DNA of 61,790 nucleotides, the filler included. It is 6 parts of 6 records of this genome, joined end to end, with 100 filler letters (N's around TTAATTAATTAA, not from the genome) between each part and the next. Parts side by side here need not be neighbours in the genome. Positions count along the whole stretch, not along the records: positions 23,610 to 36,520 come from SRR20825010_5729; 5 more parts are not named here. One strand, written 5' to 3'. Of the stretch, positions 22,751 through 40,206 are shown one piece after another (position 1 is the first letter of the stretch; each line of letters starts with the position of its first letter). A model generated the notes under the pieces. It had not been told where the DNA came from. It saw only the letters and a list, made by a program, of their open reading frames with translations, and ran no database searches. The position numbers and the translations under genes are program-made.

Positions 22751-23032
22751 ATGGCACAAGAACGGCCAAGCTCGCTCATGCGGTCACTCGGCCAGTTTGT
22801 CGGGCACCTGACCAGCGCGGTCAAGTCGGACCCGGCCAAGGCCGACCTCTCCAAGCGGGAGGGCGAGAAGCGCGAGGTGCGGCGTGAGGTCGAGGAGCGC
22901 GAGGAGACGGGGCCGGACGGGCGCAAGGTGACGCTGCGGCGGACGACGGTGGAGGAGATTGAGATCCAGCCCTCGGCCGGCCCGAACACAACCTCGGGGA
23001 AGGCCACCGACGGAGACTCGCCTCGTGAGTGA
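22751..23032 (+). CDS. Hypothetical protein (93 aa)
   Basis: ATG at 22751 gives MAQERPSSLMRSLGQFVGHL...VTLRRTTVEEIEI. Fills the gap between nuoE and the FUN14 gene with GC3-rich codons. Confidence 0.65.
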   Translation: MAQERPSSLMRSLGQFVGHLTSAVKSDPAKADLSKREGEKREVRREVEEREETGPDGRKVTLRRTTVEEIEIQPSAGPNTTSGKATDGDSPRE

Positions 23033-23509
23033 AGAAGCGGCCACAGGCGGCGGGCTCATCGCCGGGCTGTCCGGCCTGCAGAAGCTGTGCCTCGCGCTGG
23101 CGGCGGTGATCAGCATCTCCGGCGCGGGACTGTGGGGCGTCGGGGCGACGACGGCGGGTGATCGGGCCGAGACGGCCGCGACGGAGGCTTCGGGTGCGGA
23201 CGACTCTGACGGATCGGGGTTCTCGCCGCAGGGATTCACCGACAGCTCGACTTCCGGTGAGGACGATGTCGAGAGCCGCGGCACGGACACCGGTGAGGAC
23301 GCGGAGAAATCACCACTGGAGCTGTACTCCCCCACGATCTTCCGGCTGGGCTTTGCGTTCTTCCTCGGCTTCGCGGTGGCCTTCGCGCTGCGGGCGGCGT
23401 TCAAGGTGGTGCTGCTGGTGGTCGGCGGGGTGTTCCTGCTGCTGATCGGGCTGCAGATGGCCGGGCTGGTGAGCGTGAACTGGGAGGCGTTCGAGGGGAT
23501 GTACAACAC
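23025..23509 (+). CDS. FUN14 family membrane protein, 3' truncated
   Basis: LGFAFFLGFAVAFALRAAFKVVLLVVGGVFLLLIGLQMAGLVSVNW matches the FUN14 pattern. Confidence 0.75.
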
Positions 23510-23609
23510 NNNNNNNNNNNNNNNNNNNNNNNNNNNNNNNNNNNNNNNNNNNNTTAATTAATTAANNNNNNNNNNNNNNNNNNNNNNNNNNNNNNNNNNN
23601 NNNNNNNNN
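23510..23609. other. Artificial contig spacer
   Basis: N-run with TTAATTAATTAA. Confidence 0.98.
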
Positions 23610-24182
23610 CGGCATCAGCACCATCTGCATGCCGATGGTTACGTCGAGATTCTGCTCGCGCTTGATCTCGCCCATGGCCTTGATGTTTTCCGCGACCCGG
23701 TCGAACCAATGCTCCTTCACGCCCATGATCTCGGCATAGCGCTTGCGCTCACCGGCCGAGATATTGACGCGGAGATAGGTCAGGGACGGCAGGACCTCTT
23801 CCAGCTTGCGCCGGTTGAGCACGAAGCCGTTGGTACCGACTGCCATGGAGAGACCAAGCTCGTGCCCGTATTTGCAGGCGTCGACAAAGACCGGAGAGAT
23901 CGTGCTCTCACCATCGGAGACCAGGCTGATGCCCTTGACGCCGATCTCGGCGCAGTCCTCGAGAAACTCGAAGATCGCCTTCTTGTCGATCACCTTGCGC
24001 TCGTTCTCCTGCAACATTGCGTAGCAGAAGTGGCAGGCGAAATTGCAGGCGCGGGTCAGCGACATATCGATGGTGATCGGCGCGATCCGCTCACCGCGCT
24101 CCCAAGCGTCGATACGGTCCTGGTGCCAGGCGATCTTGGTGCCGTCCAGGATCAGTTCAACGTGATCTGTCATTCCGGTCAT
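23610..24182 (-). CDS. Radical SAM protein, 3' truncated
   Basis: CxxxCxxC motif CNFACHFC; GEST, TNG and LRVNISA strands. Confidence 0.9.
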
Positions 24183-24215: not shown

Positions 24216-24959
24216 TCAGAGACGCCGGATACGGTTCGCGTCCTTCACCACTTCGGTGAAGAGTTCGATACGCTCGCCGGTCTGCTCGCGCAGCCAGCGC
24301 TCAAGTTTCATCAGCAGCAAGGGTTTGTCCCAAGCCGGAATCGCATCTGTAAAGACAAGGAAGAGGCGATCATACTGGTCGATTTCCACCAGTTCGAAGG
24401 CATCGCTTGCAATATCGTTTGCCATCTTGAAGCTTTCGATATGCGGTAACACGTGATCGCGCTTGGCCTGTTTGTCCAGGTTTTTCCAAGTTTCGCTGTA
24501 AGGACGATCAAAAAAATTTGTTTCCTTGTGGCGGCCGAACCGCTCTTCTGCTTCGCGCCGAACAGCAGCAACAAGACGCAACGGAATGGAGAAGCAAGCG
24601 CCGGCATTACGCGGTGTGACAATACCTGATACCGGTGCAGGTGCTTCGGGGTCTCGGAGAGACTGTAAAGCAAAGACGAGACCGTGCTCCACCACCTCTC
24701 GTACTGGAGCGCCAATCGCATGATCACAAAGCACATCTAGGACTGCTGCTTCCGGAGCTGCTTCCGGCGCGTAAAAACAGGCATCTGTAACAGTTTCCGT
24801 CTCGTCTTCCAGTGTAAGTGTCAGGCCTAGGCCTTCCGCTTCGACGGAAATCACCGGTGTATTTGATGGAGCTGCCGGCCCCTTATGAACAAGGTGTTGC
24901 AAACGATCCGCGATGGTTCTCGCGAATGCTTTCGGGGTATCAGCAATATCGCTCACCAT
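24216..24959 (-). CDS. Hypothetical protein with probable degenerate NifU-like (IscU-like + Nfu-like) architecture
   Basis: LTLEDETETVTDACF...LCDHAIGAPVRE resembles NifU_N; FELVEIDQYDRLFLVF...LERWLRE resembles NifU_C without CxxC. Visual comparison only. Confidence 0.5.
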   Translation of the reverse strand: MVSDIADTPKAFARTIADRLQHLVHKGPAAPSNTPVISVEAEGLGLTLTLEDETETVTDACFYAPEAAPEAAVLDVLCDHAIGAPVREVVEHGLVFALQSLRDPEAPAPVSGIVTPRNAGACFSIPLRLVAAVRREAEERFGRHKETNFFDRPYSETWKNLDKQAKRDHVLPHIESFKMANDIASDAFELVEIDQYDRLFLVFTDAIPAWDKPLLLMKLERWLREQTGERIELFTEVVKDANRIRRL

Positions 24960-24963
24960 GGCA

Positions 24964-25287
24964 TCACGCTTTGATATTGCTGATATGGACAAGGCAACAA
25001 TCCTCGTGTTCTTCGAGTGAGATATTTGACACTGGTGAGAGAGCTTTTTTCAGCCCTTCTCTCTGGTCAGTTGGAAGGCTGCTGTTTTTGATCCGGATGG
25101 AAAATGCCCCAACACCGAATGCGCCGGCTGCTTCCACCATGTTCAAGATGCTTGAAATGGTGTCTTCGTCCGGGACCCACATTTCGAGGAAATCCAAGTC
25201 CACACCGTGGCCGCGCAACTGATTCAGCAGCCGGTCCTCGTAGGAGGTGACAAGCTGCTCGTAATGGATGGCTTGCTCGCTCATATA
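24964..25287 (-). CDS. Hypothetical protein (107 aa)
   Basis: MSEQAIHYEQLV...FLEMWVPDED; RBS ggag upstream; tightly packed in the operon. Confidence 0.7.
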   Translation of the reverse strand, partial: YMSEQAIHYEQLVTSYEDRLLNQLRGHGVDLDFLEMWVPDEDTISSILNMVEAAGAFGVGAFSIRIKNSSLPTDQREGLKKALSPVSNISLEEHEDCCLVHISNIKA

Positions 25288-25300
25288 CTTTTCTCCAGCT

Positions 25301-26431
25301 TCACGAGGCTTTGGCAAGAAATGCGTTTACCGCATGTGCCACCCGCTGGATCTCCGCCTCGGTCAGGTTTTGGTGTATCGGTAGAGTGATGATCCGCTGC
25401 GATTGCTCTTCGGTTACCGGATAATCCCCCTGTTTGTGGCCAAGATAGGCTGCTGCTGGCTGTAGATGGATAGGTACCGGATAGTGGATCGCCGTGCCGA
25501 TTCCAAGCGAAGAGAGGTGGCTCTGTAGCGCATCACGATGATCGACTTGGATGACAAAGGTGTGGAAGCTGTTGAACTCTATGTCCCGGCAAGGAGGTGA
25601 GAAGGCGAGCGCTGGATCTAGCAGCTCACGATAGCGTGCTGCATTGTTTCGTCGGCGTTCAACAAGCTGGCTCATATTGCCGAGACGGAAGTGAAGAATA
25701 GCGGCCTGGATCTGGTCCATCCGCGAAACCGAGCCAAAACGTGTAACGGTGTTGCGGTCGATCAGTCCGTGATTGCGGTAGAGCCGCGCGAACTCTGCGA
25801 TATCATCCCGGTCGGTTGTGAGAAACCCGGCATCGCCACAGGCATTGAGATTTTTAAGTGGGTGAGCTGAGAAGCAACCTGCATCTCCAAAAGAACCGCT
25901 TGGTTTACCGTCATAGAGCGAGCCGATGGACTGTGCCGCGTCTTCAATGATCGCTAGACCATGCTGGTCTGCGATCTCCTTGATAGGGCCCATGTCGGCA
26001 ATTCTGCCGGTTAGATGGACCGGCATGATCGCCTTGGTTTTAGATGTGATTTTTTTTTCGATCTCAATGGGATCGATATTCTGGTCCGGTAGCACATCAG
26101 CAAAAATCGGCGTAGCGCCGACATGGGCAATCACGGCGGTCGAAGCAACGAAAGAATTCGGCGGAGTGATAACCTCGTCTCCCGCACCGATTCCGAGGGC
26201 AGCAAGTGAGATAATCAGCGCGTCAGTTCCGGAATTGAGCGTCACGACATGTTTGGTGCCGCAGAGTTCTGTCAGTGCCTGCTCAAGTTTGTCGTTCCAG
26301 GGGCCTCCTACATACATACCGCTCCGCAGGACATCCTCTATGATCGGCATGAGCTCGTCGCGTTCTTCGGCGAACTGAGCGCCGATATCGACATAGGGGA
26401 TCGGATTTTGTGAAGGTGTTTTTTCCAGCAT
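25301..26431 (-). CDS. DegT/DnrJ/EryC1/StrS family PLP-dependent sugar aminotransferase
   Basis: NSGTDAL, IMPVHLTG, IIEDAAQSIG, FSAHPLKNLNACGDAG and HYPVPIHLQPA. Confidence 0.93.
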   Translation of the reverse strand: MLEKTPSQNPIPYVDIGAQFAEERDELMPIIEDVLRSGMYVGGPWNDKLEQALTELCGTKHVVTLNSGTDALIISLAALGIGAGDEVITPPNSFVASTAVIAHVGATPIFADVLPDQNIDPIEIEKKITSKTKAIMPVHLTGRIADMGPIKEIADQHGLAIIEDAAQSIGSLYDGKPSGSFGDAGCFSAHPLKNLNACGDAGFLTTDRDDIAEFARLYRNHGLIDRNTVTRFGSVSRMDQIQAAILHFRLGNMSQLVERRRNNAARYRELLDPALAFSPPCRDIEFNSFHTFVIQVDHRDALQSHLSSLGIGTAIHYPVPIHLQPAAAYLGHKQGDYPVTEEQSQRIITLPIHQNLTEAEIQRVAHAVNAFLAKAS

Positions 26432-26472
26432 GCTTTTAGTCAATCCGTGTGTGCTCTGGGCCTGATGACAGC

Positions 26473-28011
26473 CTATTTCAATAGTGCGGTCAGAGCTTTG
26501 ACCACGCTGACCTTATCCACCGAATCGCGGTGGCCGACAATTCCGACTTTGATGGCACCGGCGATACTGCCGATCAGTCCGACATTTGCAATCTTCGTGT
26601 CAATCTTGGCCAGCGGTGCAGTAATCGCGAAGAACGCATCGCCAGCTCCCATAGTATCTACCACACGCGTGGTGAAGGCGGGGATATGTGATGGAGTCTG
26701 ATCGTTGGCATCATACGCAACGCACCCATGCCGCCCGTGTGTCAAAATCATCCGGCTACAATCCATCCGTTTTGGCAATATCTCCTGAGCAATATAGCCA
26801 AGGTCGCTGAAACGATCGCCGACGGCAAGGCGAGCTTCCGGGGCATCGATGCAGACATAGTCCGCGCGCGGGTATTTGGTGATTAAATTATACCCCCGAT
26901 TAGCGCTGTTTGTCTGGGCGTTGACAGCAAGAAACGGAGCTGTTTCGCAAATCAGATCAACGGTGTCTCCGGTGATGAGGCCGTGGCCGAAATCTGCAGC
27001 CATGACAACATCGTATTGAGGTGCGAGTTCACTGATCTTGGCATGTAACTGCTCCTTCGCGACCTGAGGCAGAGGTGAATCCTCGATAAACTGAACTTCG
27101 AACAATTTGCGAAGATAGCTGTTGTCTACATAGCGCAGCTTGCGAGTGGTCGGCGCGTTAGGTCGATAGACTGGGACGATGTTCACATTGTCTCGTGTAT
27201 GTGCCTCGACAAAATGTTCGCGCGAATCACTTTCGCCAAAACAGGTAAGAATATCGACTTGCCTGCAAAAGCTCGCGACATGGTTTGCGGCAGCAATAAC
27301 CCCTCCGGCAAACATCTCAATGTCATGATGGCGGGTAGACATGATATTTTCTTTGGAGGGCTGTCCCGAGGGCGTGACGTACTGATACTCATCAAGAATG
27401 GTGTCGCCGATTATCAGGATTTTCATGTCTTGTATTTGATCGATCAGATCAAGAATGGGTTGTAATCCGATCTCGGCGCGTACCTGGTCCAGATAGTTAC
27501 GCACTTCCGGTTCGAAAACATCGACATGGCGATTGATGAGCTGGCTTGAGCTGAAGGTGATATCCTCTGTAAAGACGACGCGACCGCCGTGGCTCTCGAC
27601 CGCTTTCCGCTCGTCAACGATTTTGCCGGTTACGTCCTGTGCTGCGTCGACGTAATCCGATCCCTTGATATAGGCGTCCGGCTTGATGGCGTTAATGGCA
27701 TCTTCGGCAGAGGGCGCGGGATTGATGCCTACCCAGCTGACATATTCCAGAGCTGCAAGCATTTCTGCTCTCAGTTGGTCTGTGAAAACTGGTCGGCCCG
27801 GACCTTTTCGGACGAACTCATCAGCAGTAACGGTGACAAACAAGACATCGCCTTCGCGTCGAGCATGCTCCAGGTGACGCACATGTCCCAGATGCAGCAA
27901 GTCGAATGTGCCATGCGCATGCGCAATTTTTTTACCATCTTTCTTGAGTCGTTCAGAAATCTCAGAAAGTTGGGAAAGCTCTTTGATCTTGTTGCGCGCG
28001 CTAAGCGTCAT
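26473..28011 (-). CDS. Bifunctional cytidylyl/adenylyltransferase-PfkB sugar kinase (HldE/RfaE-like, reversed domain order)
   Basis: N-terminal HGTFDLLHLGHVRHL, KGPGRP, KGSDY and FSSS; C-terminal IGDTILDEY, DFGHG and DTMGAGDAF. Confidence 0.9.
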   Translation of the reverse strand: MTLSARNKIKELSQLSEISERLKKDGKKIAHAHGTFDLLHLGHVRHLEHARREGDVLFVTVTADEFVRKGPGRPVFTDQLRAEMLAALEYVSWVGINPAPSAEDAINAIKPDAYIKGSDYVDAAQDVTGKIVDERKAVESHGGRVVFTEDITFSSSQLINRHVDVFEPEVRNYLDQVRAEIGLQPILDLIDQIQDMKILIIGDTILDEYQYVTPSGQPSKENIMSTRHHDIEMFAGGVIAAANHVASFCRQVDILTCFGESDSREHFVEAHTRDNVNIVPVYRPNAPTTRKLRYVDNSYLRKLFEVQFIEDSPLPQVAKEQLHAKISELAPQYDVVMAADFGHGLITGDTVDLICETAPFLAVNAQTNSANRGYNLITKYPRADYVCIDAPEARLAVGDRFSDLGYIAQEILPKRMDCSRMILTHGRHGCVAYDANDQTPSHIPAFTTRVVDTMGAGDAFFAITAPLAKIDTKIANVGLIGSIAGAIKVGIVGHRDSVDKVSVVKALTALLK

Positions 28012-28148
28012 GACATTTTCCGTCAACTCTGACTCATACATTAAATTCGATCATTATCCCGCAGCATCGACGGTCTGGCTGCGCTTTGGCGCCTTTGCGT
28101 TCCTACTAGAGTCAATGAGGGAGTTTGTCCATCCGTTGTGCCGATTGG

Positions 28149-31094
28149 CTAATCTACTTTTGTAGCATTTTTTTGAGCCGTTGCGAGATAGGCTTTCAAA
28201 AGGCGTGCGGCGCATATGCCATTGAGTGGGCCGGGGTGCGTCACATCCATAAAATCTTCCGGATCACCTCCAAATTTCGATGGTTCTCGCATGTCAATAA
28301 TGTCGGTGTTTTCAGGGAATGACTCCGAGATTATATTTGTTATTCGATTATATTCTGATTTTGAGATGGGATCGTTTATTACCGCATCAAAAAGCTTAGG
28401 GTGGTATGGGGGAATAATAAATATTATCTTATCGCATTTATCTTTGATGAGATGAGAAAAGCTGAGGAATTTTCTTTTAATTGTGCTTGTTTTTATTTTT
28501 CTAGAATTGTGGGTCCGCATAAAATAAGCAGAAATTCCAGATTGTATGTCATTTTTTGCATGTGTGTATCGGGAGATGTTTTTTCCATTTCGTAAAAATT
28601 CAGAATCTCCATTGGGTTTCAATATTTCTTTTACATCATCCTCAATGGCACCAAATCTTATTTGATTTATCCGCCTGTTACGGACTTGTGCATCTCTGCG
28701 ATCTGCTAATGAAAGGTCAATATTTTCCGAATATTTTAGTAGATATGGTTTGAGAACAGGGGTTCTCAAAACCGAAGAGGATGGAAGTTCAAGAAAACTG
28801 CCAACTCGCTCAATATCTATTGATATTATAAGTGTTTCTATATTTTTTTGTATTGTTTCAAGTATGTAAGATGTGATGGCGTAAAAATCAGGAAGTGAGG
28901 CGCCTCCGGTGTAGAAATTAAAAAAAGTAATCTCATCGGAGCTAAGTTCAGTTGCCGATAAAACTTTAAAATTGCTCGAGGATAGTATGAATGAGGAAAA
29001 TGAGGACGGTGCTTTCTGGAGGATTCGAGTTTTTTCGATCGCATGGGCTGCACCATCAGAAATAACCAGCGGGCGCTCATATTCACCCGTGCGAGCTTTT
29101 TCTGCCAGGTGACAGATTGACTGAATAGACTCGAACTTGTCGAAGCCAACTTCCAAAGGTGACGGCACTGGTTTCCCAACATTTTCCTCAAGCAAAAGAA
29201 TTAGGTCTACGATTGCGAGGGAGTCGAGTAGCCCTGACGAAAGAAAATTTCCACTGTCGATAGCGCTGTCGTTAAGGTTGAAGCGTCGTTTCAAGAAGCG
29301 GTGAATTTTTTCAGAGAGATCCTGTGTTCGTTCTGAGGGCAATGCATCATTTTGAGAGCTTAGGCTGGCAAAGATGGCGTGTGCACTTTTGCGGGAAATT
29401 TTTCCGGAGGATGCCTTTTTCAGCGTTTGTCGAGGGAGCGTTTCGATGACTGCGGGGATAAAATTAAAAGTTTTCAAGATACGGCTGCGAACTTCCGAGG
29501 CTATCGCCTGATTTTCCTCGGTCGTTGATGCATTCGTTTCACAGAGTATGACAATATCTGTCGTCGCCGGATTATTCAATGTGACGCCGATTGCCGCAGC
29601 TCTGCCGGGTATGATGCCTTTGATATCCCAGAGCGCCTCTTCGATTGCGACAGGATCGTAATTGGCGCCATAGGCAATAATCATGTCATCCATGCGTCCA
29701 ACGACATAAAGATGATCGTCGGATATAAAGCCTATGTCGCCAGTTGCGAAAAAGTCTTCCTTTGTGATGTTTGTCGCAGCGGAGGCGGTATTAAAATATC
29801 CCGACATAAGTGACGGTGATTGAACATGAATTGAGCCGACATGGCGATCAGGCAGTTTTTTCTCCTCGGAACTACGAATTTGAAGCGTTGTACCTGCAAT
29901 CGGGACACCTGAGCTGACGATGGTTTTGCGCCCGTCTTTCACGGGCTTTCCGTAAGATAGGGATTGTGGGTTAATTTTTAGTCTGTTCTGGGGGTGTGCG
30001 TGGTTGGTCGATGTCATGGCAAAAGTTGTTTCAGCCATTGCGTAACAGGAGTGCAATTGTTGGCTGTTAATGCCGCATTTGGAGAACGCATCGAGAAATG
30101 CGTTTTGTGCAGCATCCGTGACTGGCTCTGAGCAATTCGTGATCATCTGGATTGAGGATAGATCGAAGGCTCCGTGGATCGATGGTTTGTACCACCGTGC
30201 CATATATGAATAGGCAAAGTTTGGTAGCCATATATGCGTGGCTTGCATTTGTTCAATTCGACGCAAAAACCACTGCGGGTTTGATAGCCAGTCAAATGGA
30301 GACATATGTACTGCTCTTGCCGCAGTCAGAAGCGGAGTCCAGTAAGAGCAAATTAACCCCATATCATGATATAGAGGAAGCCAGCTGCTAATAACGCTGT
30401 CCTGTGTAATGCCGATTGCATTGGTATAGCGCTCTATTTGTTCCAGAAGGGCTGCTTCGGAAATCTCTACGCCTTTTTTTAGGCCGGTGGTGCCCGAACT
30501 ATACTGAATGATGACAGGCATATTGTCGGGGCGAGGGCGGTAGGGGATAGGTTCAGCCGTGGATGTCTGGAGGATGGTAGATGCCCCCAGAACTGGTGAT
30601 TTGCGAGTGTCGATAAAAAGTCGGGAAGCTTCGTCGACGATACTCAGCCGAGGACTGATTTGATCAATCAAAACCGCGATCATCTCGGCATAATCTTGTT
30701 CGGAAATCTTTGGATTTGGCGGCGTCATTACAATTGGAATCGCGCCAGCATGAAAGGCCGATGCAATCGCGAGGAACAGGGCCGTCTGATGAGACATGCA
30801 GATGAGCACTCTGTCTCCGGGTTTCACGCCTGCCTCAATGAGTTTGCTTGCTGATCGGGCTGCTCCTAGGAGAAAGCCTTTGTATGTGAATGGGTGTGGG
30901 ATGTTTTTGCTGTCAACAATGTCGAAGAATGCTTTGGAGGCGTGCTGCTCATAATTGAACTGCATCTGTTTCTGTATAGAGTTCTGGAGCTTCATGGAGG
31001 CAGAGATTTCAATGGTGAACGATTGGGTGACGGTAGCGTGTTCATACGGATAAATTTGCTGTCGCGTAGCGGCGTGCAATGTCTCGTTTATCAT
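28149..31094 (-). CDS. Fatty acyl-AMP ligase + acyl carrier protein + SGNH/DltD-like domain fusion (start may be 30965)
   Basis: QYSSGTTGLKKG, SWLPLYHDMGLI, CYAMAETT, TGDIG, GRMDD and ASSGKI (adenylation/FAAL); SGLLDSLAIVDLILLLE (ACP); ILSSSN, FNFYTGGAS, IPPYHP and FMDVTH (SGNH-like). Confidence 0.8.
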   Translation of the reverse strand: MINETLHAATRQQIYPYEHATVTQSFTIEISASMKLQNSIQKQMQFNYEQHASKAFFDIVDSKNIPHPFTYKGFLLGAARSASKLIEAGVKPGDRVLICMSHQTALFLAIASAFHAGAIPIVMTPPNPKISEQDYAEMIAVLIDQISPRLSIVDEASRLFIDTRKSPVLGASTILQTSTAEPIPYRPRPDNMPVIIQYSSGTTGLKKGVEISEAALLEQIERYTNAIGITQDSVISSWLPLYHDMGLICSYWTPLLTAARAVHMSPFDWLSNPQWFLRRIEQMQATHIWLPNFAYSYMARWYKPSIHGAFDLSSIQMITNCSEPVTDAAQNAFLDAFSKCGINSQQLHSCYAMAETTFAMTSTNHAHPQNRLKINPQSLSYGKPVKDGRKTIVSSGVPIAGTTLQIRSSEEKKLPDRHVGSIHVQSPSLMSGYFNTASAATNITKEDFFATGDIGFISDDHLYVVGRMDDMIIAYGANYDPVAIEEALWDIKGIIPGRAAAIGVTLNNPATTDIVILCETNASTTEENQAIASEVRSRILKTFNFIPAVIETLPRQTLKKASSGKISRKSAHAIFASLSSQNDALPSERTQDLSEKIHRFLKRRFNLNDSAIDSGNFLSSGLLDSLAIVDLILLLEENVGKPVPSPLEVGFDKFESIQSICHLAEKARTGEYERPLVISDGAAHAIEKTRILQKAPSSFSSFILSSSNFKVLSATELSSDEITFFNFYTGGASLPDFYAITSYILETIQKNIETLIISIDIERVGSFLELPSSSVLRTPVLKPYLLKYSENIDLSLADRRDAQVRNRRINQIRFGAIEDDVKEILKPNGDSEFLRNGKNISRYTHAKNDIQSGISAYFMRTHNSRKIKTSTIKRKFLSFSHLIKDKCDKIIFIIPPYHPKLFDAVINDPISKSEYNRITNIISESFPENTDIIDMREPSKFGGDPEDFMDVTHPGPLNGICAARLLKAYLATAQKNATKVD

Positions 31095-31209
31095 GTTTAT
31101 AGGGTGGAAGCCGCGATCAATTTTTCACGAGATGGATATTTCTGAGGGCGGGGGAGAGGCTTGTATTTGGTTTGAGTTTTTTCTGGTTTTTGATTGGTTT
31201 AAATATACC

Positions 31210-32331
31210 TTAATCTATCCCGTCTCCGGTATTTGGAAGTTGTAGAAAATAATTTTTTGTCAAAGTAGGTTTCAAGGGAAGCTCGAGCTTATTAGTGAAG
31301 GTTTTCACGCCGTTATCAGTGTGGTTCGAGGTGCGCCATCCTGAAATGTCTTCGGTGCGCTCATAGAAGTCGTCTGCGCCGAATTTAAGCTCTTCGGCGG
31401 TGCATTTTTCAATGATGATGTCCGGTTTTTTTGATGCTAAGTGCGCCTTCAGTAAGGCCCCGTTCATTAAGCCAGCTTCCAATGCTTCTTTTTGGCGGTA
31501 CTGTTTGCCGTTCATTATGATTTTTGCGCCTAATGAGCGGTCATGCTCGTTCCAAATACCGTTTGGATCTGTGTTTTCAGTGATAAGAGTTGGAGTTCCG
31601 AACGCTGGGCCAAAAGAAAGGGGGCCAGAGTTTGAAGAAATAAAATAGCGAGAAGACATGACTGCGTATGCATGGAGAGAGATGTTATTTTCTATGTGGG
31701 AAATATCAATGATTCCATCAATTTTTGGGAGTGGTGTCATTCCAGGGTGGCCGATTCTAACAACTTGCCCGCCTTGTTTTTTTACTATGTAGTCTGCCAA
31801 CTCGATGTATGGGCGTGGATCAAGAATATCTCTGAAGAGGTGCGGCGGGCGCCCTGGGTATCCTGGTTCTCTCCAATAGAGGCAGGCAAACCAACGGTTT
31901 TCATCGAGGCCTAGATCTATGAGGTTTTGCTTTAATGATATTTGTTTTTTTTCTGGAATGACAAACCTAGATTTTTTTTTGAAAGAAGGCATCGCAAAAT
32001 CATTCAGAGTTTGTGATGTTAATATTATATCGGATCGCCTTCCGTCCATTTTAATCCAATTTTCATTATTAAAAGTAAGAGGGGACCCTGATCTTTTGTC
32101 AAAGCAATCAATGGGGAAATTTTTTATTTTCTCAGGTGATGCGTGAAATGAAAAATCGATTTGTGGCATCATTTCAATGATCTGTGATTTGTACCATCTG
32201 TCATTTCTGTAGTACACTATAAGTGATGCGTCTTCGAAATTTACTTTTATCGTGGTGGCTGCTGCGCATTCTACAATAAAATCTCCAAGCGCTCGAGATC
32301 CTATGTAAGAAAAAATTCTAACTTTCGACAT
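31210..32331 (-). CDS. Putative glycosyltransferase, TIGR04372-like (GT-B/GT9-related)
   Basis: RALGD, WFACLYWREPGY, GGQVVRIGHP and YFISSNSGP...AFGTP. Strongly AT-rich. Confidence 0.7.
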   Translation of the reverse strand: MSKVRIFSYIGSRALGDFIVECAAATTIKVNFEDASLIVYYRNDRWYKSQIIEMMPQIDFSFHASPEKIKNFPIDCFDKRSGSPLTFNNENWIKMDGRRSDIILTSQTLNDFAMPSFKKKSRFVIPEKKQISLKQNLIDLGLDENRWFACLYWREPGYPGRPPHLFRDILDPRPYIELADYIVKKQGGQVVRIGHPGMTPLPKIDGIIDISHIENNISLHAYAVMSSRYFISSNSGPLSFGPAFGTPTLITENTDPNGIWNEHDRSLGAKIIMNGKQYRQKEALEAGLMNGALLKAHLASKKPDIIIEKCTAEELKFGADDFYERTEDISGWRTSNHTDNGVKTFTNKLELPLKPTLTKNYFLQLPNTGDGID

Positions 32332-32347: not shown

Positions 32348-33814
32348 TTAATTTACAAATTTCTTACACAAAAATAGATGTAGTGTGCGGTTTTTTTCTT
32401 TTCCTGTTTTGGCTTTAATTGAGATTAGGTTAGTTACCTCTCCGAACCGTTCCAGGATCGGGAACGGATTATCCCATTTTGCTACCAGCAAAACCGTGTC
32501 ACCGGGCTTGGGGAGATAACGTTCCGTCAACTCGTAATGATGGTCCGGGTGGCCGTCATAGTCCCACATCCTCGGCCGGCGTTCGAGATCACGCAGAGCA
32601 TAGAGCAGGGAGGCCATGGTCTTGCGGTCTTCGGTCAGCCAGACGGCGTCCGGATGGGCGGCGAGGATGGGGCGGAGCTGGTCGGCCACCTGGTCCCAGG
32701 CGCGGAGCCGGCGCAGCGGATCGTTTTTCAATGGAACATCAACGCCCGGCAGATCGAGGAAGAAGAAGCCAAGCACGGCGGCGGCGGTGAGGTTGATGCC
32801 GATACCGGCGACAACCAGCTTCAGGCGGTCACGCTTGAGCAGCCAACACACAACCAGGATCGTTGCCGCGACATAGGCGGTAGCCGCCCAGTTGGCGTTT
32901 GCCCGGCTGAGGAAGGCCTGGCCGGTGATGATCAGCAGCACCGGCAGGGAGAAGCACAGCAGCAGCTTTTCCATTTGCGCCGCCGGGTCCCGGCGCAGCA
33001 TGGCGAGGCGCCAGAGCAGGGCGACGAAAAGCACCGGCCCGAAGACACCGGCCTGGCTGCCGACAAACTCCAGCATTTTTCCGAAATGGAACAGGTCGCC
33101 CTTCAGATTGGTGTTGTCTTTGACGTGCGTGAAGGTCACCCAGCCGGACTCGAAATTCCAGATCAGGTTCGGCGCGAACACGGCAAGCATGATGACGAGC
33201 GCGATCAGCGGCTTCCGGCTTGTCAGCCAGGACCGGTGTGCAGGCGTGATCAGCGTGAACAGGACCAGACCGAGGATGAAATAGGCCATGGCATATTTGG
33301 CGAGAAACCCAGCGCCGAGGGCGAGGCCGAGCAGCAGAGGCCATCCGGGTGCATCGCTTTTCAGGCTGCGGACGAAGGCCAGCATGGCCACAGCCCAGAG
33401 GAACAGAAGCGGCACGTCGGTCGAGATCAGCAGGCTGGAGAGAGAGACAGCCGGAAGCGTCGCAAAACTCAGCCCGGACCAGAACCCGGCTTTCCTGCTC
33501 CCTGTCAGGGTCTCGGCAATGCCGTAGATGACGAGCGCTGTTCCCGCATGCAGCAAGGGCGAGGGCGCGCGGATACAGGCGGTCCCATCGCCGCAGAGCG
33601 ATTGCGCCCCGGCGATGATGAAGGCGATCAGCGGCGGCTTCGTATAATAGCCCCATTCAAGATCGCGGCTCCACGACCAGTATTGCGCCTCGTCGCCATG
33701 AAGGCCGAGCCCGCTGCCTGCAAGCACCGCCAGCCGGAGCGCGGTCAGTGCCGCGACGGCCAGGAGGAGCCACAGGAAGTAGGGGCGGCTGTCATCTTTG
33801 ATCACGGTTGGCAT
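32348..33814 (-). CDS. ArnT/PMT family (GT83/GT39-like) membrane glycosyltransferase
   Basis: DEAQYWSWSRDLEWGYYTKPPL, ISTDVPL, GFLAKY, PNLIWN and ANANWAA; many TM helices. Confidence 0.9.
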   Translation of the reverse strand: MPTVIKDDSRPYFLWLLLAVAALTALRLAVLAGSGLGLHGDEAQYWSWSRDLEWGYYTKPPLIAFIIAGAQSLCGDGTACIRAPSPLLHAGTALVIYGIAETLTGSRKAGFWSGLSFATLPAVSLSSLLISTDVPLLFLWAVAMLAFVRSLKSDAPGWPLLLGLALGAGFLAKYAMAYFILGLVLFTLITPAHRSWLTSRKPLIALVIMLAVFAPNLIWNFESGWVTFTHVKDNTNLKGDLFHFGKMLEFVGSQAGVFGPVLFVALLWRLAMLRRDPAAQMEKLLLCFSLPVLLIITGQAFLSRANANWAATAYVAATILVVCWLLKRDRLKLVVAGIGINLTAAAVLGFFFLDLPGVDVPLKNDPLRRLRAWDQVADQLRPILAAHPDAVWLTEDRKTMASLLYALRDLERRPRMWDYDGHPDHHYELTERYLPKPGDTVLLVAKWDNPFPILERFGEVTNLISIKAKTGKEKNRTLHLFLCKKFVN

Positions 33815-34016: not shown

Positions 34017-35942
34017 ATGGCGATGAAGACCCTGGATGAAAAAACCTTGATGACGCTCGCGGAGGAATCTCCCGAAACGTCTCGCGAAGCCTGGATGAGT
34101 GCTGTCGATACGGTGCTGAAAGGCGCGTCGTTCGACAAGGTTCTCACCCGTCGAACCTATGAAGGTCTGACGCTGCAGCCGATCTATACCGGTGAGGACG
34201 CACCGTCCGGCAGGACCGTGCCAACTCCGGGTGGTGATCGGACTGAGGCCGGCTGGGATGTGCGGCAAATGCAGGCGCATGGCGATCCGGCGGAAGTTGC
34301 CAAGACGGCAAAGCAGGATCTGGAGCGCGGCGCGACTTCGGTTCTGCTGCGGGTCGACCGGCCCGGCGTGGAGGGTGTGGTCATCGGGTCGACGGACGAT
34401 CTCGACAAGGCGCTCGCCGGCATTCACCTGAACATGGCGCCTGTCGCGCTGGATGCGGGCGCATATGCGCCTGCTGTCTCCTCCATGCTGGAAGATCTCT
34501 GGGCCCGCCGCGGCTGCGATGCGGGAGAGGTTTCAGGCAGTTTTCGGATCGATCCGCTCGGCGCGCTGGCCCGGGAAGGCTGGCTGCCGAAGACGGCGGA
34601 AGATGCTCTTGCGGAGATGGCGGAGATTGCCAAGCGGACGGCGGCAAGCCATCCGAAGGTGCGATCCGTAGCGGTCGATACCGCACCGTATTACGAAGCG
34701 GGCGCCAACGAAGTGCAGGATCTGGCCTTCGCGATGGCGACCGGCATTGCTTATCTGCGTGCGCTAACCGCAGCCGGACTTGATATCGCCTCAGCCGCAA
34801 AGCAGATCGAATTCACCTTCGCGCTCGGCGTCGACGTTTTCCAGGGCATCGCCAAGCTGCGCGCGGCACGGCGGCTTTGGGCGCGGGTGCTAGAAGCGTC
34901 CGGTACCGATTCCGCAGATGCTCCGATGAGCTTGCATGTGGTCACGGCGGAGCGGGCGATTGCCGGACGGGATGTCTGGGTCAACATGCTGCGCGCCACG
35001 GTCTCGACCTTTGCCGCCGGTGTCGGCGGGGCGGACAGTCTGACGGTGCTGCCCTACGATCATGCGGTCGGCTTGCCGGACGGGTTCGCCCGCCGCATTG
35101 CCCGCAATACCCAGATCATCCTGATGGAAGAGTCCGGCCTGCATCGCGTGACCGATCCGGCGGGCGGGTCCTGGTATGTCGAACATCTGAGCGACGAATA
35201 TGCGGTCCGGGCCTGGGATATCCTGCAATCCATAGAGGCTGATGGCGGCATGGTCGCCGCGCTTGCCTCTGGCCGGGTTGCTTCGATGGTTGCCGATGGC
35301 TGGGCCGAACGGGAACGGAACCTCGCCCGGCGCAAGGACGAGGTCACCGGCGTCAGCACCTTCCCGAACTTGAGTGAGGAAACGGCGGTAGGCGTCGTGT
35401 GTGACCGGGACGCGCTACGCGGGGTCCTTGGTCAAGGCGCTCTGCCGGACCGTGCGAAACCCGGTGTGGAGATGGTGCCCCTGGCCCGTCACACGCTCGG
35501 TGAAGGGTTTGAAGCCCTGCGTGCCGCGAGCGATGCGGCACTTGAAAAATCAGGCGCACGGCCCCGGATCTTCCAGATCAATCTTGGCACGCCGGCTGAT
35601 TACACGGCGCGGGGAACCTTCGCGCAGAACTATTTTGCGGCGGGCGGTATCGAAAGCGTTCCGGCGGAAACTGGCGGCAGTGATGCCGGAGCCGCATTCA
35701 AAAAGAGCGGCTGCCGTTTTGCTGTTCTCTGCTCCTCTGATAAAATCTACGGCGAAGCTGTGGTGGAAACTGCCGAAGTCCTGAAGAAATTCGGTGCGGA
35801 ACGTATTCTTCTGGCAGGGCGTCCCGGCGATAACGAAGATGTCTGGCGGGCAGCGGGGATCGACGGTTTCATCTATGTTGGAGACCAGACCCTCGCGACC
35901 CTTCGCGATCTGGCCGCCGGATTGGGAGTGATCGAACAATGA
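34017..35942 (+). CDS. Methylmalonyl-CoA mutase small (non-catalytic) subunit
   Basis: [47 protein letters not shown] and VLCSSD; lacks the DxHxxG motif. ATGA overlap with the large subunit. Confidence 0.9.
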
Positions 35943-36520
35943 GCGCGATACCCGATTTCTCGACCGTCTCTCTCGGCAACCCCGCGACTGGCGGATCTGC
36001 TGTGGAAGGCGACGTCTGGGAGACCCCGGAGCGGATCGCGGTCAAGCCGCTCTACACGGCGGAGGATATCGAGGGCCTCGATTTCCTGAAGACCTGGCCC
36101 GGCCTGCCGCCGTTCCTGCGCGGACCTTATCCGACCATGTATGTGAACAAGCCCTGGACTGTCCGGCAATATGCCGGTTTCTCCACGGCGGAGCAGTCGA
36201 ATGCCTTCTACCGCCGCAATCTCGCAGCCGGTCAGAAGGGGCTTTCGGTGGCCTTCGATCTGGCGACCCACCGGGGCTATGACAGCGATCATCCGCGCGT
36301 CGTCGGCGATGTCGGCATGGCTGGGGTCGCGATCGACAGCATTCTCGACATGCGCCAGCTTTTCGACGGCATCCCGCTCGACCAGATGAGTGTGTCGATG
36401 ACCATGAACGGCGCCGTGCTGCCGGTCATGGCGCTCTATATCCTCGCGGCGGAAGAACAGGGCGTTTCCCCGGAAAAGCTCAGCGGTACCATTCAGAACG
36501 ACATTCTGAAGGAGTTCATG
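35939..36520 (+). CDS. scpA: Methylmalonyl-CoA mutase large subunit, 3' truncated
   Basis: [38 protein letters not shown] and [12 protein letters not shown]. Confidence 0.95.
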
Positions 36521-36620
36521 NNNNNNNNNNNNNNNNNNNNNNNNNNNNNNNNNNNNNNNNNNNNTTAATTAATTAANNNNNNNNNNNNNNNNNNNNNNNN
36601 NNNNNNNNNNNNNNNNNNNN
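36521..36620. other. Artificial contig spacer
   Basis: N-run with TTAATTAATTAA. Confidence 0.98.
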
Positions 36621-36650: not shown

Positions 36651-38006
36651 TTATTGCACCAGCTTTCCGTCTCGCAATGAAATAAAGTAGTTGTCCCTAC
36701 CTATCTGGCCGCCTTTGAGAGCGATTTCCAGTTGGGTTCCATCATTGTGAAAGGCGTTACACAAAGGGGACCCCGGTGTTTGCGGTATGGGGTGGCGCAG
36801 TGTTAAGGCGTAAATGTTCATTTCGCTCAGTGCCAGACTAGATGTATCACCGCCGGCAATAACGGCGCGTTCCAACTTATGCTCGCGGATCAACCTGTCG
36901 AGCAGTGCTCCCAGATGGCGCCCGGCGATGTCTGCAGAAGCGGTTTGAGCACTGGTGACCGTTTCTGGGCCGCGCGCTGTGTAAATGATCGGGCTTTTAC
37001 CACTCTGTAGGTGTTTTGACGCAGTCTTGGCGGTTTGTTCGAGAGCAAGCTCAGTTCCTTGCCCGGAAATCAGTGTATGATAGTCAACCGGAACGCCCGC
37101 AAAATTCTCAGAAAGGGCCGTTTCAATCTGGTTTGCCGTGGTTGAAGAGCAACTTCCTGAAACAACAGCAATGCGCTCGAGTTTTTTGGGGCTGGAAATT
37201 TGCGGTGCGGGTCCGATGAGGTCGGCCTGCCGCCATGCCCGAAGCAATGCATACTCAACACCCGATGATCCAACTGCGAACGGGCCGAGTAATTTACGAA
37301 AAGTATGCAGAAACGCGCCAGCGGCCGCCTGACTTGGATCGTCGTAAACATCAAGAAGAAGGCATTGTTGATCTGGAAGTGTGGTTCGCGTTCCGTGTCC
37401 GTCATACGCTCCTTCAAGGAGGGTCTTTACTTGATCAAAAGTAACGCAGGTTGAAGAAAGCGAACTCTGCCTGCCCAGATGCAAAAGAAGGTCAGATTCG
37501 GTCATCGGTGTTGCGGGGTGTTGGCTCATGACCGGGTGTCGGTCGATGCGACAGGTCCGGTCGCGGTATGCGGCAAACAGATGCCCAAAGAAGGTATATC
37601 GGCGAAGCTGGGGGGCGCCGACAATCAACGGAACCTGTTTTTGGTCAAACACGGTTCTGCCGATTTCTATGGCGCGTCCGATCGAACCCTGTTGCGGTGC
37701 ACTGTCGAAAGTTGAACATGTTTTATAATGAAAATGCTTTGCGTTCAGTCGCTGCAACCATTGGAAAACATCAGGCAGATTGTCGTCCATCCATTGAGGG
37801 GGTTGGCTTCGGCTAATCCCTGCCAGACCAACAGCCCTGCAGTTTTTAAACTGTTCAATGTGATGAGCTTCCGGGATGCGCGTAAACAAAACGGTTTCAA
37901 TACCGTTTGAAGACAGTGCCTCCATGACGTCGGTGGAACCGGTAAAGTCATCCCCGTAAAAAGAGAGAAACAGGTCTTGGGCGAATGAATTTCTAGACAT
38001 GATCAT
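36651..38006 (-). CDS. oiaK: Four-carbon acid sugar kinase (DUF1537 family), probable 3-oxo-isoapionate kinase
   Basis: YGDDFTGSTD, HYKTCSTFDS, GSSGVEYAL, SGSCS, AGGDTS and LKGGQIG; coupled to the RLP gene in an apiose locus. Confidence 0.82.
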   Translation of the reverse strand: MIMSRNSFAQDLFLSFYGDDFTGSTDVMEALSSNGIETVLFTRIPEAHHIEQFKNCRAVGLAGISRSQPPQWMDDNLPDVFQWLQRLNAKHFHYKTCSTFDSAPQQGSIGRAIEIGRTVFDQKQVPLIVGAPQLRRYTFFGHLFAAYRDRTCRIDRHPVMSQHPATPMTESDLLLHLGRQSSLSSTCVTFDQVKTLLEGAYDGHGTRTTLPDQQCLLLDVYDDPSQAAAGAFLHTFRKLLGPFAVGSSGVEYALLRAWRQADLIGPAPQISSPKKLERIAVVSGSCSSTTANQIETALSENFAGVPVDYHTLISGQGTELALEQTAKTASKHLQSGKSPIIYTARGPETVTSAQTASADIAGRHLGALLDRLIREHKLERAVIAGGDTSSLALSEMNIYALTLRHPIPQTPGSPLCNAFHNDGTQLEIALKGGQIGRDNYFISLRDGKLVQ

Positions 38007-39250
38007 TTTTTCCGGAAGGTCGAAAGAGCAAGGCGGAGTTCTTCATGGTCTTTGGCAAATTCATCAGCTGGAATGCCCTGCACTGCGGCCGAGGCAGCCT
38101 GCTGAATACTTGCGACGCCGCCTGCAACGCCGCCGGGATGACCGATGATTCCGCCACCTGCGCAATAGATGAAATCAGTATGACCAAGTGCAGCGATGGT
38201 CTGTTCCATTTGCACAGCTGTCTGACCAGATGAGAAAACCGGCATTGCGTGAGCCGTTTGATTGGTGGTGACATTTTCGCCAAGTGCGCGGGCAGACTCC
38301 ATGACAGTGTCGTCGCATTCGGTGAATTTGTTGTCGATCCCGTTGACATGAAGATGGTCAGCGCCCGCCAACCGCCAGAATTTTTGCCAGGCGCGAAACG
38401 AAATACCGATGTCCGGAGATCGTGAGAAAATACCCCAGCCGTTGCGATGGCAGTGCAGGGGAAGAGAAGAATGCGCACGAATAGCACTTAGCCCCGTCAA
38501 ACCGATCGAAAACAGACTGACCATGATGCATGTGCCACCCAGCTCACGTACCAGATCCGCATTGCGTTTCATCTCGTCGATCTCGCCGGTAATGTTAAAG
38601 GCATACATCGGCATTTTTCCGGTGCGGTCGGCATAGTCATTGATGACATGCATGACCTCTTGGGCGCGTTCGGGGAATGGGCAGTGCGGGCCATTTCCCT
38701 GCAGTTCATCATCCTTGATGAAATCGATACCGCCTTCGATCAGTTGAAGGACAAGTTGCGCGGTTTCCTGCGGTGACAGGCCCACACTGGGTTTGATGAT
38801 GGTGCCGATCATTGGTCGGTTGGAAACACCGGCAAGTTCGAGAGTGCCTTTACGCCCGAATGCAGGGCCGGGACAGGTCTGCGAAAATGCATCCGGGAAT
38901 TCGACATCAAGCAAGCGCAATGCCGATATATCGGCCAGTTCAAACAGATTGCCAGCAACTGTCGCAAGAGCGTTGGTAAGCGATGTGCCCATATTGTCCA
39001 AAGGCCAGGATAGCGTGATAACCCCGCGTGAATAACACGTTCCCTGTGTTCGGGTGGGGAGTGACGGTGTTGCCGATCGAGATCGTTCTTCGACCATCTC
39101 AACCCGTGCACCGTATCTTTGGCGCAGTGCGTCTGTTTCCCCGGCAAGTTTCAAAAAAGTTCCCGAAGATTGTTCGCCTGCAATGACTTTGGCGGCGTGT
39201 TCTAGGCTTTTGGGGCTTTCAACCTCGTAATGGGCGAGCAGTCTTTCCAT
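38003..39250 (-). CDS. RuBisCO-like protein (form IV), probable 3-oxo-isoapionate-4-phosphate transcarboxylase/hydrolase or decarboxylase (OiaT/OiaX type)
   Basis: AGEQSSGTF, GNLF, GTIIKPSVG, DFIKDDE, HRNG, PVFSSG and GGGIIGHP; no small subunit; apiose gene context. Confidence 0.88.
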   Translation of the reverse strand: MERLLAHYEVESPKSLEHAAKVIAGEQSSGTFLKLAGETDALRQRYGARVEMVEERSRSATPSLPTRTQGTCYSRGVITLSWPLDNMGTSLTNALATVAGNLFELADISALRLLDVEFPDAFSQTCPGPAFGRKGTLELAGVSNRPMIGTIIKPSVGLSPQETAQLVLQLIEGGIDFIKDDELQGNGPHCPFPERAQEVMHVINDYADRTGKMPMYAFNITGEIDEMKRNADLVRELGGTCIMVSLFSIGLTGLSAIRAHSSLPLHCHRNGWGIFSRSPDIGISFRAWQKFWRLAGADHLHVNGIDNKFTECDDTVMESARALGENVTTNQTAHAMPVFSSGQTAVQMEQTIAALGHTDFIYCAGGGIIGHPGGVAGGVASIQQAASAAVQGIPADEFAKDHEELRLALSTFRKK

Positions 39251-39305
39251 TGATGTAGTCCTCCCGGCGGTAAAGCTTCTTTAAGTTAATATTACGATTA
39301 TCATC

Positions 39306-39332
39306 TCATCATACCAGTTGACAATATGATGA
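39306..39332. promoter_or_regulatory. Inverted repeat TCATCATA-N11-TATGATGA enclosing TTGACA; putative operator in a divergent promoter
   Basis: tcatcata-ccagttgacaa-tatgatga between the RLP and apnO genes. Confidence 0.6.
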
Positions 39333-39381
39333 ATGTTGGTAATTGTTGTTTCAACAAACAAAAACACCAACAGGAGGAAGC

Positions 39382-40206
39382 ATGAAGATCGCTTTGATCG
39401 GTGCCGGTGGCAAAATGGGGGTTCGGCTTTCGGCCAATCTCAAGGGTTCGCGCTTTGATGTTGCGCATGTCGAAATTACCGAAGCAGGGCAGGCTCGCCT
39501 GAAGGATGCAGTTGGTGTCAACTGTGTCGCGCTTGATGATGCTTTGGCCGGAGCACGTGCCGTTATTCTTGCTGTTCCAGATACAGCGATTAGGGCCGTT
39601 TCACATGGTCTGATTGACAAGGTTGCACCAGGCACCATGATCATTGCACTTGATGCGGCAGCACCTTTTGCCGGCCATTTTCCAGAGCGCAATGATGTGA
39701 CCTATTTCGTCACTCATCCTTGTCATCCGCCAATTTTTAATGAAGAAACAGACATGGTCGCCAAGCGCGACTATTTCGGTGGCGTTGCGGCAAAACAGGC
39801 TATTGTCAGCGCCTTGATGCAGGGACCTGACGAGGATTTCGGGCTTGGAGAAGAGATTGCAAAAACAATTTTCCAGCCGATTTTGCGGTCTCATCGTGTG
39901 TCCGTTGATGAAATGGCCTTGCTGGAGCCCGGGTTGTCCGAGACAGTTTGTGCTACCTTGCTGGTTGTAATGAAAGATGCGCTGGACGAGGTCGTGCGTC
40001 GTGGCGTGAATGAGCAGGCAGCACGTGACTTCCTTTTGGGACATCTTAATATTCTTGGTGCCGTTGTTATGGGCGAAATACAGGGTGAATTCTCTGACGC
40101 GTGTAACAAGGCAATTAATAACGGAAAGCCACGTTTGATGCGTGACGACTGGATCGGGGTATTCGAACCGGACGAAATCAAAGAAAGCATCCGTCGGATC
40201 ACCTGA
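39382..40206 (+). CDS. apnO: D-apionate oxidoisomerase
   Basis: MKIALIGAGGKMGVRLSANL, LDAAAPFAG, THPCHPPIF, LEPGLSETVCAT and FSDACNKAI. RBS aggagg. Confidence 0.85.
   Translation: MKIALIGAGGKMGVRLSANLKGSRFDVAHVEITEAGQARLKDAVGVNCVALDDALAGARAVILAVPDTAIRAVSHGLIDKVAPGTMIIALDAAAPFAGHFPERNDVTYFVTHPCHPPIFNEETDMVAKRDYFGGVAAKQAIVSALMQGPDEDFGLGEEIAKTIFQPILRSHRVSVDEMALLEPGLSETVCATLLVVMKDALDEVVRRGVNEQAARDFLLGHLNILGAVVMGEIQGEFSDACNKAINNGKPRLMRDDWIGVFEPDEIKESIRRIT

Follow-up and report, generated by a model that had tools for sequence, protein, structure and literature searches.

Can one soluble protein activate an acyl group, carry it and hand it on to an acceptor inside the cell? This question is raised by a fusion gene of a marine bacterium at 28149..31094 on the minus strand of the window, by which we mean the whole 61,790-nucleotide (61.8-kb) stretch of DNA that was analysed. 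In a single chain, the gene encodes a predicted fatty acyl-AMP ligase (FAAL), an acyl carrier domain and a C-terminal domain that is modelled as an SGNH fold resembling DltD. According to PMC12148441, bacterial polymer acylation has two major systems, MBOAT + SGNH and AT3-SGNH, which both work outside the membrane, and the characterised SGNH acyltransferases of bacterial envelope polymers are all extracytoplasmic, being fed by MBOAT or AT3 via an acyl-tyrosine shuttle. With moderate confidence, we consider the fusion to be a soluble, cytoplasmic, MBOAT-independent three-domain acyl relay that would pass its acyl group to an envelope-sugar precursor. If this is true, such a soluble version, wired to its own ligase and carrier, would show that SGNH acylation of precursors takes place in the cytoplasm as well.

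Three domains in one reading frame

The open reading frame (ORF) runs uninterrupted through 981 codons plus the stop. An initial annotation, made from the letters alone, had described a single chain with ligase, carrier and SGNH domains and had quoted four motifs from it. The reading of the ORF and the domain searches agree with this description, and all four motifs are present (GLLDSL at residues 621-626, ILSSSN at 703-708, PPYHP at 895-899 and DVTH at 950-953). The true start is more likely Met34 at 30995, which would give a gene of 28149-30995 and a protein of 948 amino acids, because three orthologues begin at the Met34 position. One of them comes from another assembly and is 70% identical, the second is encoded in the complete genome of Nisaea acidiphila (55% identity over the full length, 49% over residues 580-981), and the third is an identical protein. 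No clear ribosome-binding site was found ahead of either candidate start. Compared with the window, the independent assemblies of runs X6 and X9 lack one base at 31143, in the spacer ahead of the ORF, and carry a substitution at 31001, between the two candidate starts.

The initial annotation had allowed for the fusion being an assembly artefact. We give a negligible probability to an origin by misassembly or by gene calling. Three DNA runs, each from a different study, contain single contigs that span the whole gene, with 0-3 differences and the frame intact, and the same architecture is found in ten full-length cluster representatives, one of them from a complete genome. In addition, 26 of 30 bins are covered by contigs from a metatranscriptome library, individual records of which bridge both domain junctions. 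Accordingly, we regard the fusion as genuine. The metatranscriptome coverage is also a weak hint of transcription, with DNA carry-over uncontrolled.

The ligase domain is located at 29364..30917 (minus strand; residues ~60-577). It matches Pfam AMP-binding over residues 67-434 (1.8e-46), and its top NCBIfam models are a long-chain-fatty-acid ligase (3.4e-84) and the FAAL subfamily (2e-80); the latter model, PRK09192, is matched over residues 64-577, but below its curated equivalog-style cut-off. The closest solved structures are those of the FAALs from Legionella (3kxw, 5.8e-52) and E. coli (3pbk, 4.7e-42), followed by mycobacterial FadD23, FadD28 and FadD32. From these matches, the N-terminal domain is assigned to the FAAL branch of adenylate-forming enzymes. 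The SSGTTGLKKG stretch (S199-K207, L205 excepted) and Lys565 are invariant in all 12 full-length fusions. In the alignment with 3kxw, the gaps past the AET motif, at positions 330-370 of the query starting at Met34, are small (at most 5 positions). The FAAL-specific insertion that blocks the use of coenzyme A (CoA) would lie at these positions.

The carrier domain follows at 29079..29327 (minus strand; residues ~590-672), and its predicted phosphopantetheine-site serine is Ser625 (codon 29220-29222, minus strand), within GLLDSL. When the carrier was compared with Protein Data Bank sequences, all 21 of its weak matches at E<=1 were acyl, peptidyl or D-alanyl carrier proteins, and in the alignment with PltL, the best one shown, the motif serine faces S625. 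In four fused homologues (P0016, P0057, P0064 and P0076), the best PP-binding stretch passes the search threshold alone, with a score of more than 20.8 bits. Conservation was read from the 12 whole-protein rows of the alignment of full-length fusions, in which D624 and S625 are invariant (12/12). A complex prediction of the carrier with the SGNH domain, which was run without alignments or controls, gave a score of 0.00 and counts neither for nor against binding.

The C-terminal domain occupies 28152..29075 (minus strand; residues 674-981). Residues 674-981 of the fusion itself matched no model in Pfam or NCBIfam, and an Atlas look-up of the domain gave unnamed clusters only, the nearest named ones being DltD, DUF1574 and SGNH. 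In an alignment of 59 relatives, 23 sequences match DUF1574 (PF07611, best 7.5e-12), five match Lipase_GDSL_2 and one matches DltD (PF04914, 2.1e-4), the last of which is a model that the domain of the fusion does not match. The profile built from these 59 sequences gave chance-level matches only when it was compared with the sequences of solved structures, the best being dynein (E 0.034). The fold was better defined. AlphaFold2 modelling with the 59-sequence alignment gave a pLDDT of 92.8 and a pTM of 0.92; this model superseded a first fold from a 3-sequence alignment (pLDDT 61.2, best Foldseek E 0.017). Nearly all matches listed by Foldseek for the 59-sequence model are SGNH enzymes, and the three at E<=0.001 are an SGNH acetyl xylan esterase. 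In the VIA structure search, 62 chains were found at Z>=8, and all 50 among the matches listed are SGNH enzymes or SGNH-domain proteins. The top match was CgnD (Z 12.0, 204 residues), and DltD was matched with a Z of 11.6 over 248 residues, the longest match, and with a Z of 11.3 over 238 residues. Further matches included dozens of GDSL/SGNH esterases and the O-acetyltransferases PatB and OatA.

The residues of the predicted catalytic triad are Ser707 (codon 28974-28976), Asp950 (28245-28247) and His953 (28236-28238), all on the minus strand. All 59 sequences share Ser707, which lies just past strand 1, and His953, and D950-x-x-H953 is located ahead of the last helix. Asp950, Asn726, Asp760 and His898 are retained in at least 90% of the 59; N726 and D760, which hardly vary, close strands 2 and 3 of the model and are candidates for the oxyanion-hole positions of blocks II and III. 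In the terms of PMC12148441, S707 is the serine of SGNH block I, and D950 and H953 form the DxxH of block V. The initial annotation had proposed an SGNH/DltD-like domain and had considered that the fold might prove not to be SGNH. A confident model, structure matches that are SGNH, the length of the DltD match and the conservation of S707, D950 and H953 support its proposal, and the domain is, as modelled, a DltD-like SGNH fold with conserved Ser, Asp and His.

We searched 1.84 billion cluster representatives exhaustively with a profile of the C-terminal domain and obtained 90 proteins at E<=0.001, of which 39 (those with the best scores and almost every one of more than 410 residues) were scanned with Pfam. 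Nine relatives of 930-1006 residues have an N-terminal AMP-binding domain, and one TPR-extended fusion has 1219 residues. The full-length fused cluster representatives number ten, including P0004 from the complete genome of N. acidiphila, whose AMP-binding assignment was taken from a precomputed Pfam annotation. The other relatives that are not stand-alone are three fragments starting inside the ligase, two proteins with the carrier and the domain (possible fragments) and one TPR fusion, and the remainder are stand-alone proteins of ~300-460 residues. A metagenome-assembled genome of the Chlamydiales also has a fused ORF of 981 amino acids, a distant relative, on an 8.2-kb contig. Judging by these sequences, the architecture recurs beyond the source genome and constitutes a small family. 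The 12 full-length fusions show no variation in the adenylation residues, the carrier serine or the SGNH triad, and since this holds for all three sets of catalytic residues, the three activities appear to be under joint selection. The gene was present in 19 sequencing runs from 13 studies; 14 of these runs contained at least half of the sampled words, and several runs are labelled marine. A scan of genome contigs for fused orthologues returned just one distant fused relative, and nothing was found by a first metagenome scan for orthologous loci or by tblastn against plasmids.

Cytoplasmic placement and the proposed relay

The initial annotation had seen no obvious membrane segment between the domains and no MBOAT gene on the contig of the fusion, and had proposed that activation, carriage and transfer all occur in the cytoplasm. 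A hydrophobicity scan found no transmembrane segment or signal peptide along the chain, and its two hydrophobic windows are elements of soluble domains. One of them, at residues 96-124, belongs to the ligase core and aligns to the soluble 3kxw structure; the other, at residues 616-636, is helix II of the carrier and holds two Asp residues. MBOAT was found neither by Pfam scans of all sizeable ORFs in the 61.8-kb window, to which the search was confined, nor at E<=10 in the six-frame translation of the window with a hidden Markov model (HMM) built from eight MBOATs, nor on the 8.2-kb contig of the fused Chlamydiales gene. Considering that the ligase needs ATP and that the remainder of the chain has no means of export, the SGNH domain must be cytoplasmic. 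The first two statements are thus supported, the one on MBOAT within the window, and so is the cytoplasmic placement in the third, in which transfer is presumed.

The stand-alone relatives show a different arrangement. A hydrophobic anchor in the first 100 residues is found in 55 of the 61 that have 300-460 residues, and two of the six anchor-less ones lack a Met start, whereas the fused proteins have no N-terminal anchor. Among 200 Chlamydiota genomes, 11 have the SGNH domain. At the stand-alone loci of this phylum, an MBOAT gene lies immediately upstream in eight of eight cases; six of these MBOATs were confirmed by Pfam, and the other two by their similarity to the six, in an HMM comparison for which all eight had served to build the model. 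Around these loci (L017-L024), there are genes for GT2 glycosyltransferases, Wzy-like proteins, methyltransferases, NTP-transferases, DegT and sugar nucleotides, and their SGNH genes are all without a Pfam match at E<=1e-5. The stand-alone form with its upstream MBOAT is a classical MBOAT-SGNH pair. In a quick maximum-likelihood tree (midpoint root, some long branches, P0017 left out of the alignment), the carrier-fused domains group together. They are separate from a clade with 99% support that comprises 38 stand-alone forms (36 with an anchor). The fused label needs two changes on this tree as against a mean of 15.0 after shuffling, and none of 500 shuffles was as low.

The MBOAT partners of the stand-alone relatives (8/8 Chlamydiota loci) would also suit a different arrangement, in which the fusion feeds a classical Dlt-like relay via an MBOAT encoded elsewhere and the C-terminal domain lies outside the membrane; the MBOAT search in this genome covered the 61.8-kb window. 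We consider this very improbable, in view of a whole chain that has neither signal peptide nor membrane segment, of an SGNH domain that is covalently joined to an ATP-dependent ligase and a carrier, both of which are necessarily cytoplasmic, and of the absence of MBOAT within the 61.8 kb and on the fused Chlamydiales contig.

For the cytoplasmic relay that we prefer, three steps can be envisaged. As its family membership suggests, the FAAL would adenylate a fatty or other aliphatic acid, and the acid would then be linked by a thioester bond to the phosphopantetheine arm at Ser625, in the carrier of the same chain. The fold and the conserved residues suggest that the SGNH domain would take the acyl group from the arm directly onto Ser707, aided by His953 and Asp950. 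SGNH transferases act through an acyl-serine intermediate, and the donor of DltD stems from a carrier-protein thioester (PMC12148441). Finally, judging by context, the acyl group would be passed to a hydroxyl or amino group of an intracellular acceptor. The likeliest acceptor would be an envelope precursor that bears a sugar and is made with the apparently co-acquired glycosyltransferase described below. In this case, the MBOAT channel and the acyl-tyrosine shuttle would be dispensable, and the carrier would be supplied by covalent fusion instead.

Neighbouring genes, acceptor and rival activities

The fusion lies in a row of genes on the same strand, in the order PMT_2/ArnT-like protein, TIGR04372 glycosyltransferase, fusion, cytidylyltransferase-PfkB protein, DegT aminotransferase, unassigned ORF and radical SAM ORF. 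The first gene of the row, at 32348..33814 (minus strand), encodes a PMT_2/ArnT-like GT-C membrane glycosyltransferase (Pfam PMT_2 8.4e-29, weak ArnT match 4.4e-05). The upstream neighbour, at 31210..32331 (minus strand), is a putative glycosyltransferase of the TIGR04372 family (NCBIfam 2e-18, above the cut-off of 45) and has no sequence relative among solved structures. Downstream, at 26473..28041 (minus strand), lies a cytidylyltransferase-like + PfkB kinase gene whose product is ADP-heptose-synthase-like; its domain order is reversed compared with HldE, the cytidylyltransferase preceding the PfkB kinase. It is followed by a sugar aminotransferase of the DegT/DnrJ/EryC1 family (25301..26443, minus strand; Pfam 9.1e-107), for which the best NCBIfam models are PseC-, ArnB- and WecE-like and are all below their cut-offs. 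The ORF at 24216-24992, on the same strand, has no family in Pfam, NCBIfam or Atlas. The row ends with a short radical SAM ORF of 206 amino acids (23562-24182, minus strand), whose matches are confined to the first ~150 of the ~350 positions in the models. Truncation or a frameshift may have shortened this gene, or it may be a short form; the ORF that follows it downstream (22784-23509, minus strand), in another frame, has no family in Pfam or NCBIfam.

These genes differ in GC content. The fusion has a GC of 0.449 (0.381 in its SGNH part) and the TIGR04372 glycosyltransferase gene one of 0.414, whereas the other neighbours range from 0.52 to 0.61 (0.608 for the first gene of the row), and the window as a whole has 0.55. 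A homologue of the glycosyltransferase with 65% identity and the fusion orthologue with 70% identity are both on a contig of 66671 bases, apparently the same one; of the neighbours, only the glycosyltransferase had a match on a contig of this length. The common low GC and this apparent co-occurrence make the two genes look co-acquired, and the low-GC block at 28149-32331 suggests horizontal acquisition of the pair. We therefore consider the TIGR04372 glycosyltransferase as the likeliest functional partner of the fusion. A second metagenome scan, with the glycosyltransferase as the query, returned one TARA contig fragment carrying the gene at 99% identity and two distant loci with other sugar-modification genes. 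On the other hand, the cytidylyltransferase-PfkB protein has thousands of relatives, with identities of 96% to a close relative, 80-81% to Nisaea species and 55-60% to Magnetospirillum relatives; its gene is, by these comparisons, a conserved core gene outside the low-GC insert. Because of the same identities, the source organism is placed near Nisaea.

Accordingly, the link of the acceptor to neighbouring genes is weaker than in the initial annotation, in which an amino sugar or glycan made by them was named as a possible acceptor. The part that stands is the glycosyltransferase, which matches the low GC of the fusion; the kinase gene belongs to the core, and the remaining neighbours have a GC of 0.52-0.61. 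The locus also has lipopolysaccharide-core-like and ArnT-like genes. Our best guess for the acceptor is a sugar-bearing envelope precursor, and the main alternative is a membrane lipid.

According to that alternative, the fusion would be a cytoplasmic acyltransferase with a membrane lipid or a lipid A precursor as its acceptor, a functional analogue of the FAAL-lysophospholipid-acyltransferase fusions that have been noted in bacteria (PMC8460268). N. acidiphila retains the fusion with no TIGR04372 homologue detectable among the 18 matches of the glycosyltransferase, and there is no glycosyltransferase near the fused gene on the Chlamydiales contig, both of which would fit a lipid acceptor. The low GC common to the fusion and the glycosyltransferase, their apparent co-occurrence on the contig of the nearest orthologue, and the glycan gene clusters that house the stand-alone relatives argue for a sugar instead, and we regard a lipid as improbable.

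The acyl group may also be released rather than transferred. In this case, the SGNH domain would be a thioesterase that frees the product after modification of the carrier-bound chain, or that clears a mis-loaded carrier (editing). Cleavage of acyl thioesters by an SGNH enzyme is exemplified by E. coli TesA. Esterases or hydrolases make up most of the SGNH matches from the structure searches. CgnD, which VIA ranked first, is a cytoplasmic hydrolase (PMC10070186), and genes for a radical SAM protein and an aminotransferase are within the same row as the fusion. However, DltD, which gives the longest structural match (248 aligned residues), is a transferase, the adjacent aminotransferase is of the sugar-nucleotide DegT family and is not an acyl-chain enzyme, and the GC of the radical SAM and aminotransferase genes differs from that of the fusion. 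Moreover, ATP would be burnt in a futile cycle if an acyl-carrier thioester were hydrolysed unmodified. We favour transfer over hydrolysis because such hydrolysis undoes an ATP-consuming activation, which is an argument and not a result. A releasing or editing thioesterase thus seems unlikely to us, and it is still a serious rival.

Several points weigh against a relay that is independent of MBOAT and acts on an envelope sugar. First, sequence alone does not separate transfer from hydrolysis, so that transfer is inferred. Second, the match of the carrier to Pfam PP-binding (PF00550) has 18.8 bits (E 0.0019), which is under the cut-off of 20.8 bits. Third, an MBOAT encoded elsewhere in the genome is conceivable, considering that the search covered the window only. 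The remaining points concern the glycosyltransferase. N. acidiphila has the fusion, yet no glycosyltransferase homologue from it is among the 18 matches, which indicates that the pairing of the two genes is not universal. Conversely, a contig of 553023 bases from the close relative has the glycosyltransferase (85%) and the kinase gene (96%), and no fusion orthologue from it turned up.

Elsewhere in the window, a RuBisCO-like large-chain homologue (38003-39250, minus strand) adjoins an SBD_N/NBD_C sugar-acid kinase (36651-38006, minus strand). The region 36651-40206 also contains, after the RuBisCO-like homologue, a 6-phosphogluconate-dehydrogenase-like gene and a sugar ABC transporter, and it looks like a sugar-acid catabolic cluster with a RuBisCO-like protein. 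On the plus strand, two overlapping ORFs at 34017-36568 match methylmalonyl-CoA mutase, one of 641 amino acids over the whole model and one of 209 amino acids over model positions 1-170. The shorter ORF may result from a partial duplication, or a second subunit may begin with it.

Comparison with known acylation systems

Full-text literature searches found no published description of a ligase-carrier-SGNH fusion, in agreement with the initial annotation, which had not recognised the architecture as characterised. Surveys of FAALs mention carrier fusions, polyketide synthase and nonribosomal peptide synthetase contexts, and lysophospholipid-acyltransferase fusions (PMC8460268, PMC12820801). In the main texts of both, the words SGNH, DltD and esterase are absent, as are GDSL in that of PMC8460268 and hydrolase in that of PMC12820801. 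A single polypeptide of this kind would allow the hand-off from a carrier thioester to an SGNH serine to be studied. In addition, considering that 19 runs hold the gene and several of them are marine, its product may be a common yet unnoticed envelope lipid or glycolipid.

DUF1574 (PF07611) is a family of the SGNH clan CL0264 with no known activity or structure, according to a 2022 review (PMC9487903). Of the 59 aligned relatives of the C-terminal domain, 23 match PF07611. The domain of the fusion itself reaches no Pfam model, and the carrier-fused branch is apart from the mostly anchored stand-alone clade. The fusion could offer a first biochemical entry to DUF1574, which is without an assigned function (PMC9487903).

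FAAL-acyl carrier protein didomains and FAAL-lysophospholipid acyltransferase fusions are similar in that a FAAL and its cognate carrier feed a downstream transferase without CoA (PMC12820801, PMC8460268). They differ from the fusion of the window, in which the downstream catalytic domain is SGNH.

The O-acyltransferases PatA/PatB, AlgI/AlgJ/AlgX and OatA, which are of the MBOAT-SGNH and AT3-SGNH types, have an SGNH catalytic domain in common with the fusion. They draw on acyl-CoA, proceed via an acyl-tyrosine intermediate and operate on the outside of the membrane (PMC12148441). Unlike them, the fusion has its own ligase and carrier and no membrane part.

The Dlt pathway, which consists of the ligase DltA, the carrier DltC, the MBOAT DltB, DltX and the SGNH transferase DltD, follows the same ligase-carrier-SGNH logic as the fusion. 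Its final transfer is carried out by a Ser-His-Asp SGNH enzyme via acyl-serine (PMC12148441), and DltD is the longest structural match of the C-terminal domain. However, the Dlt components are separate and include a D-alanine ligase, whereas the fusion is one soluble chain with a ligase of the fatty acyl-AMP type. DltD is membrane-anchored and has the MBOAT DltB as its partner; the fusion is anchor-less, no MBOAT was found in the window (a search for DltX was not made), and the C-terminal domain of the fusion does not match the Pfam model of DltD. What is new here is accordingly a small recurrent family of cytoplasmic ligase-carrier-SGNH fusions, and the Dlt-type logic was already known. We suggest, tentatively and with less than even confidence, that these fusions represent a third, membrane-independent use of DltD-type SGNH transferases beside MBOAT-SGNH and AT3-SGNH, in which the carrier thioester would go directly to the SGNH serine within the cell and a sugar-linked envelope precursor would be lipidated before its export, and that their branch evolved from, or in parallel to, the extracytoplasmic partners of MBOAT.

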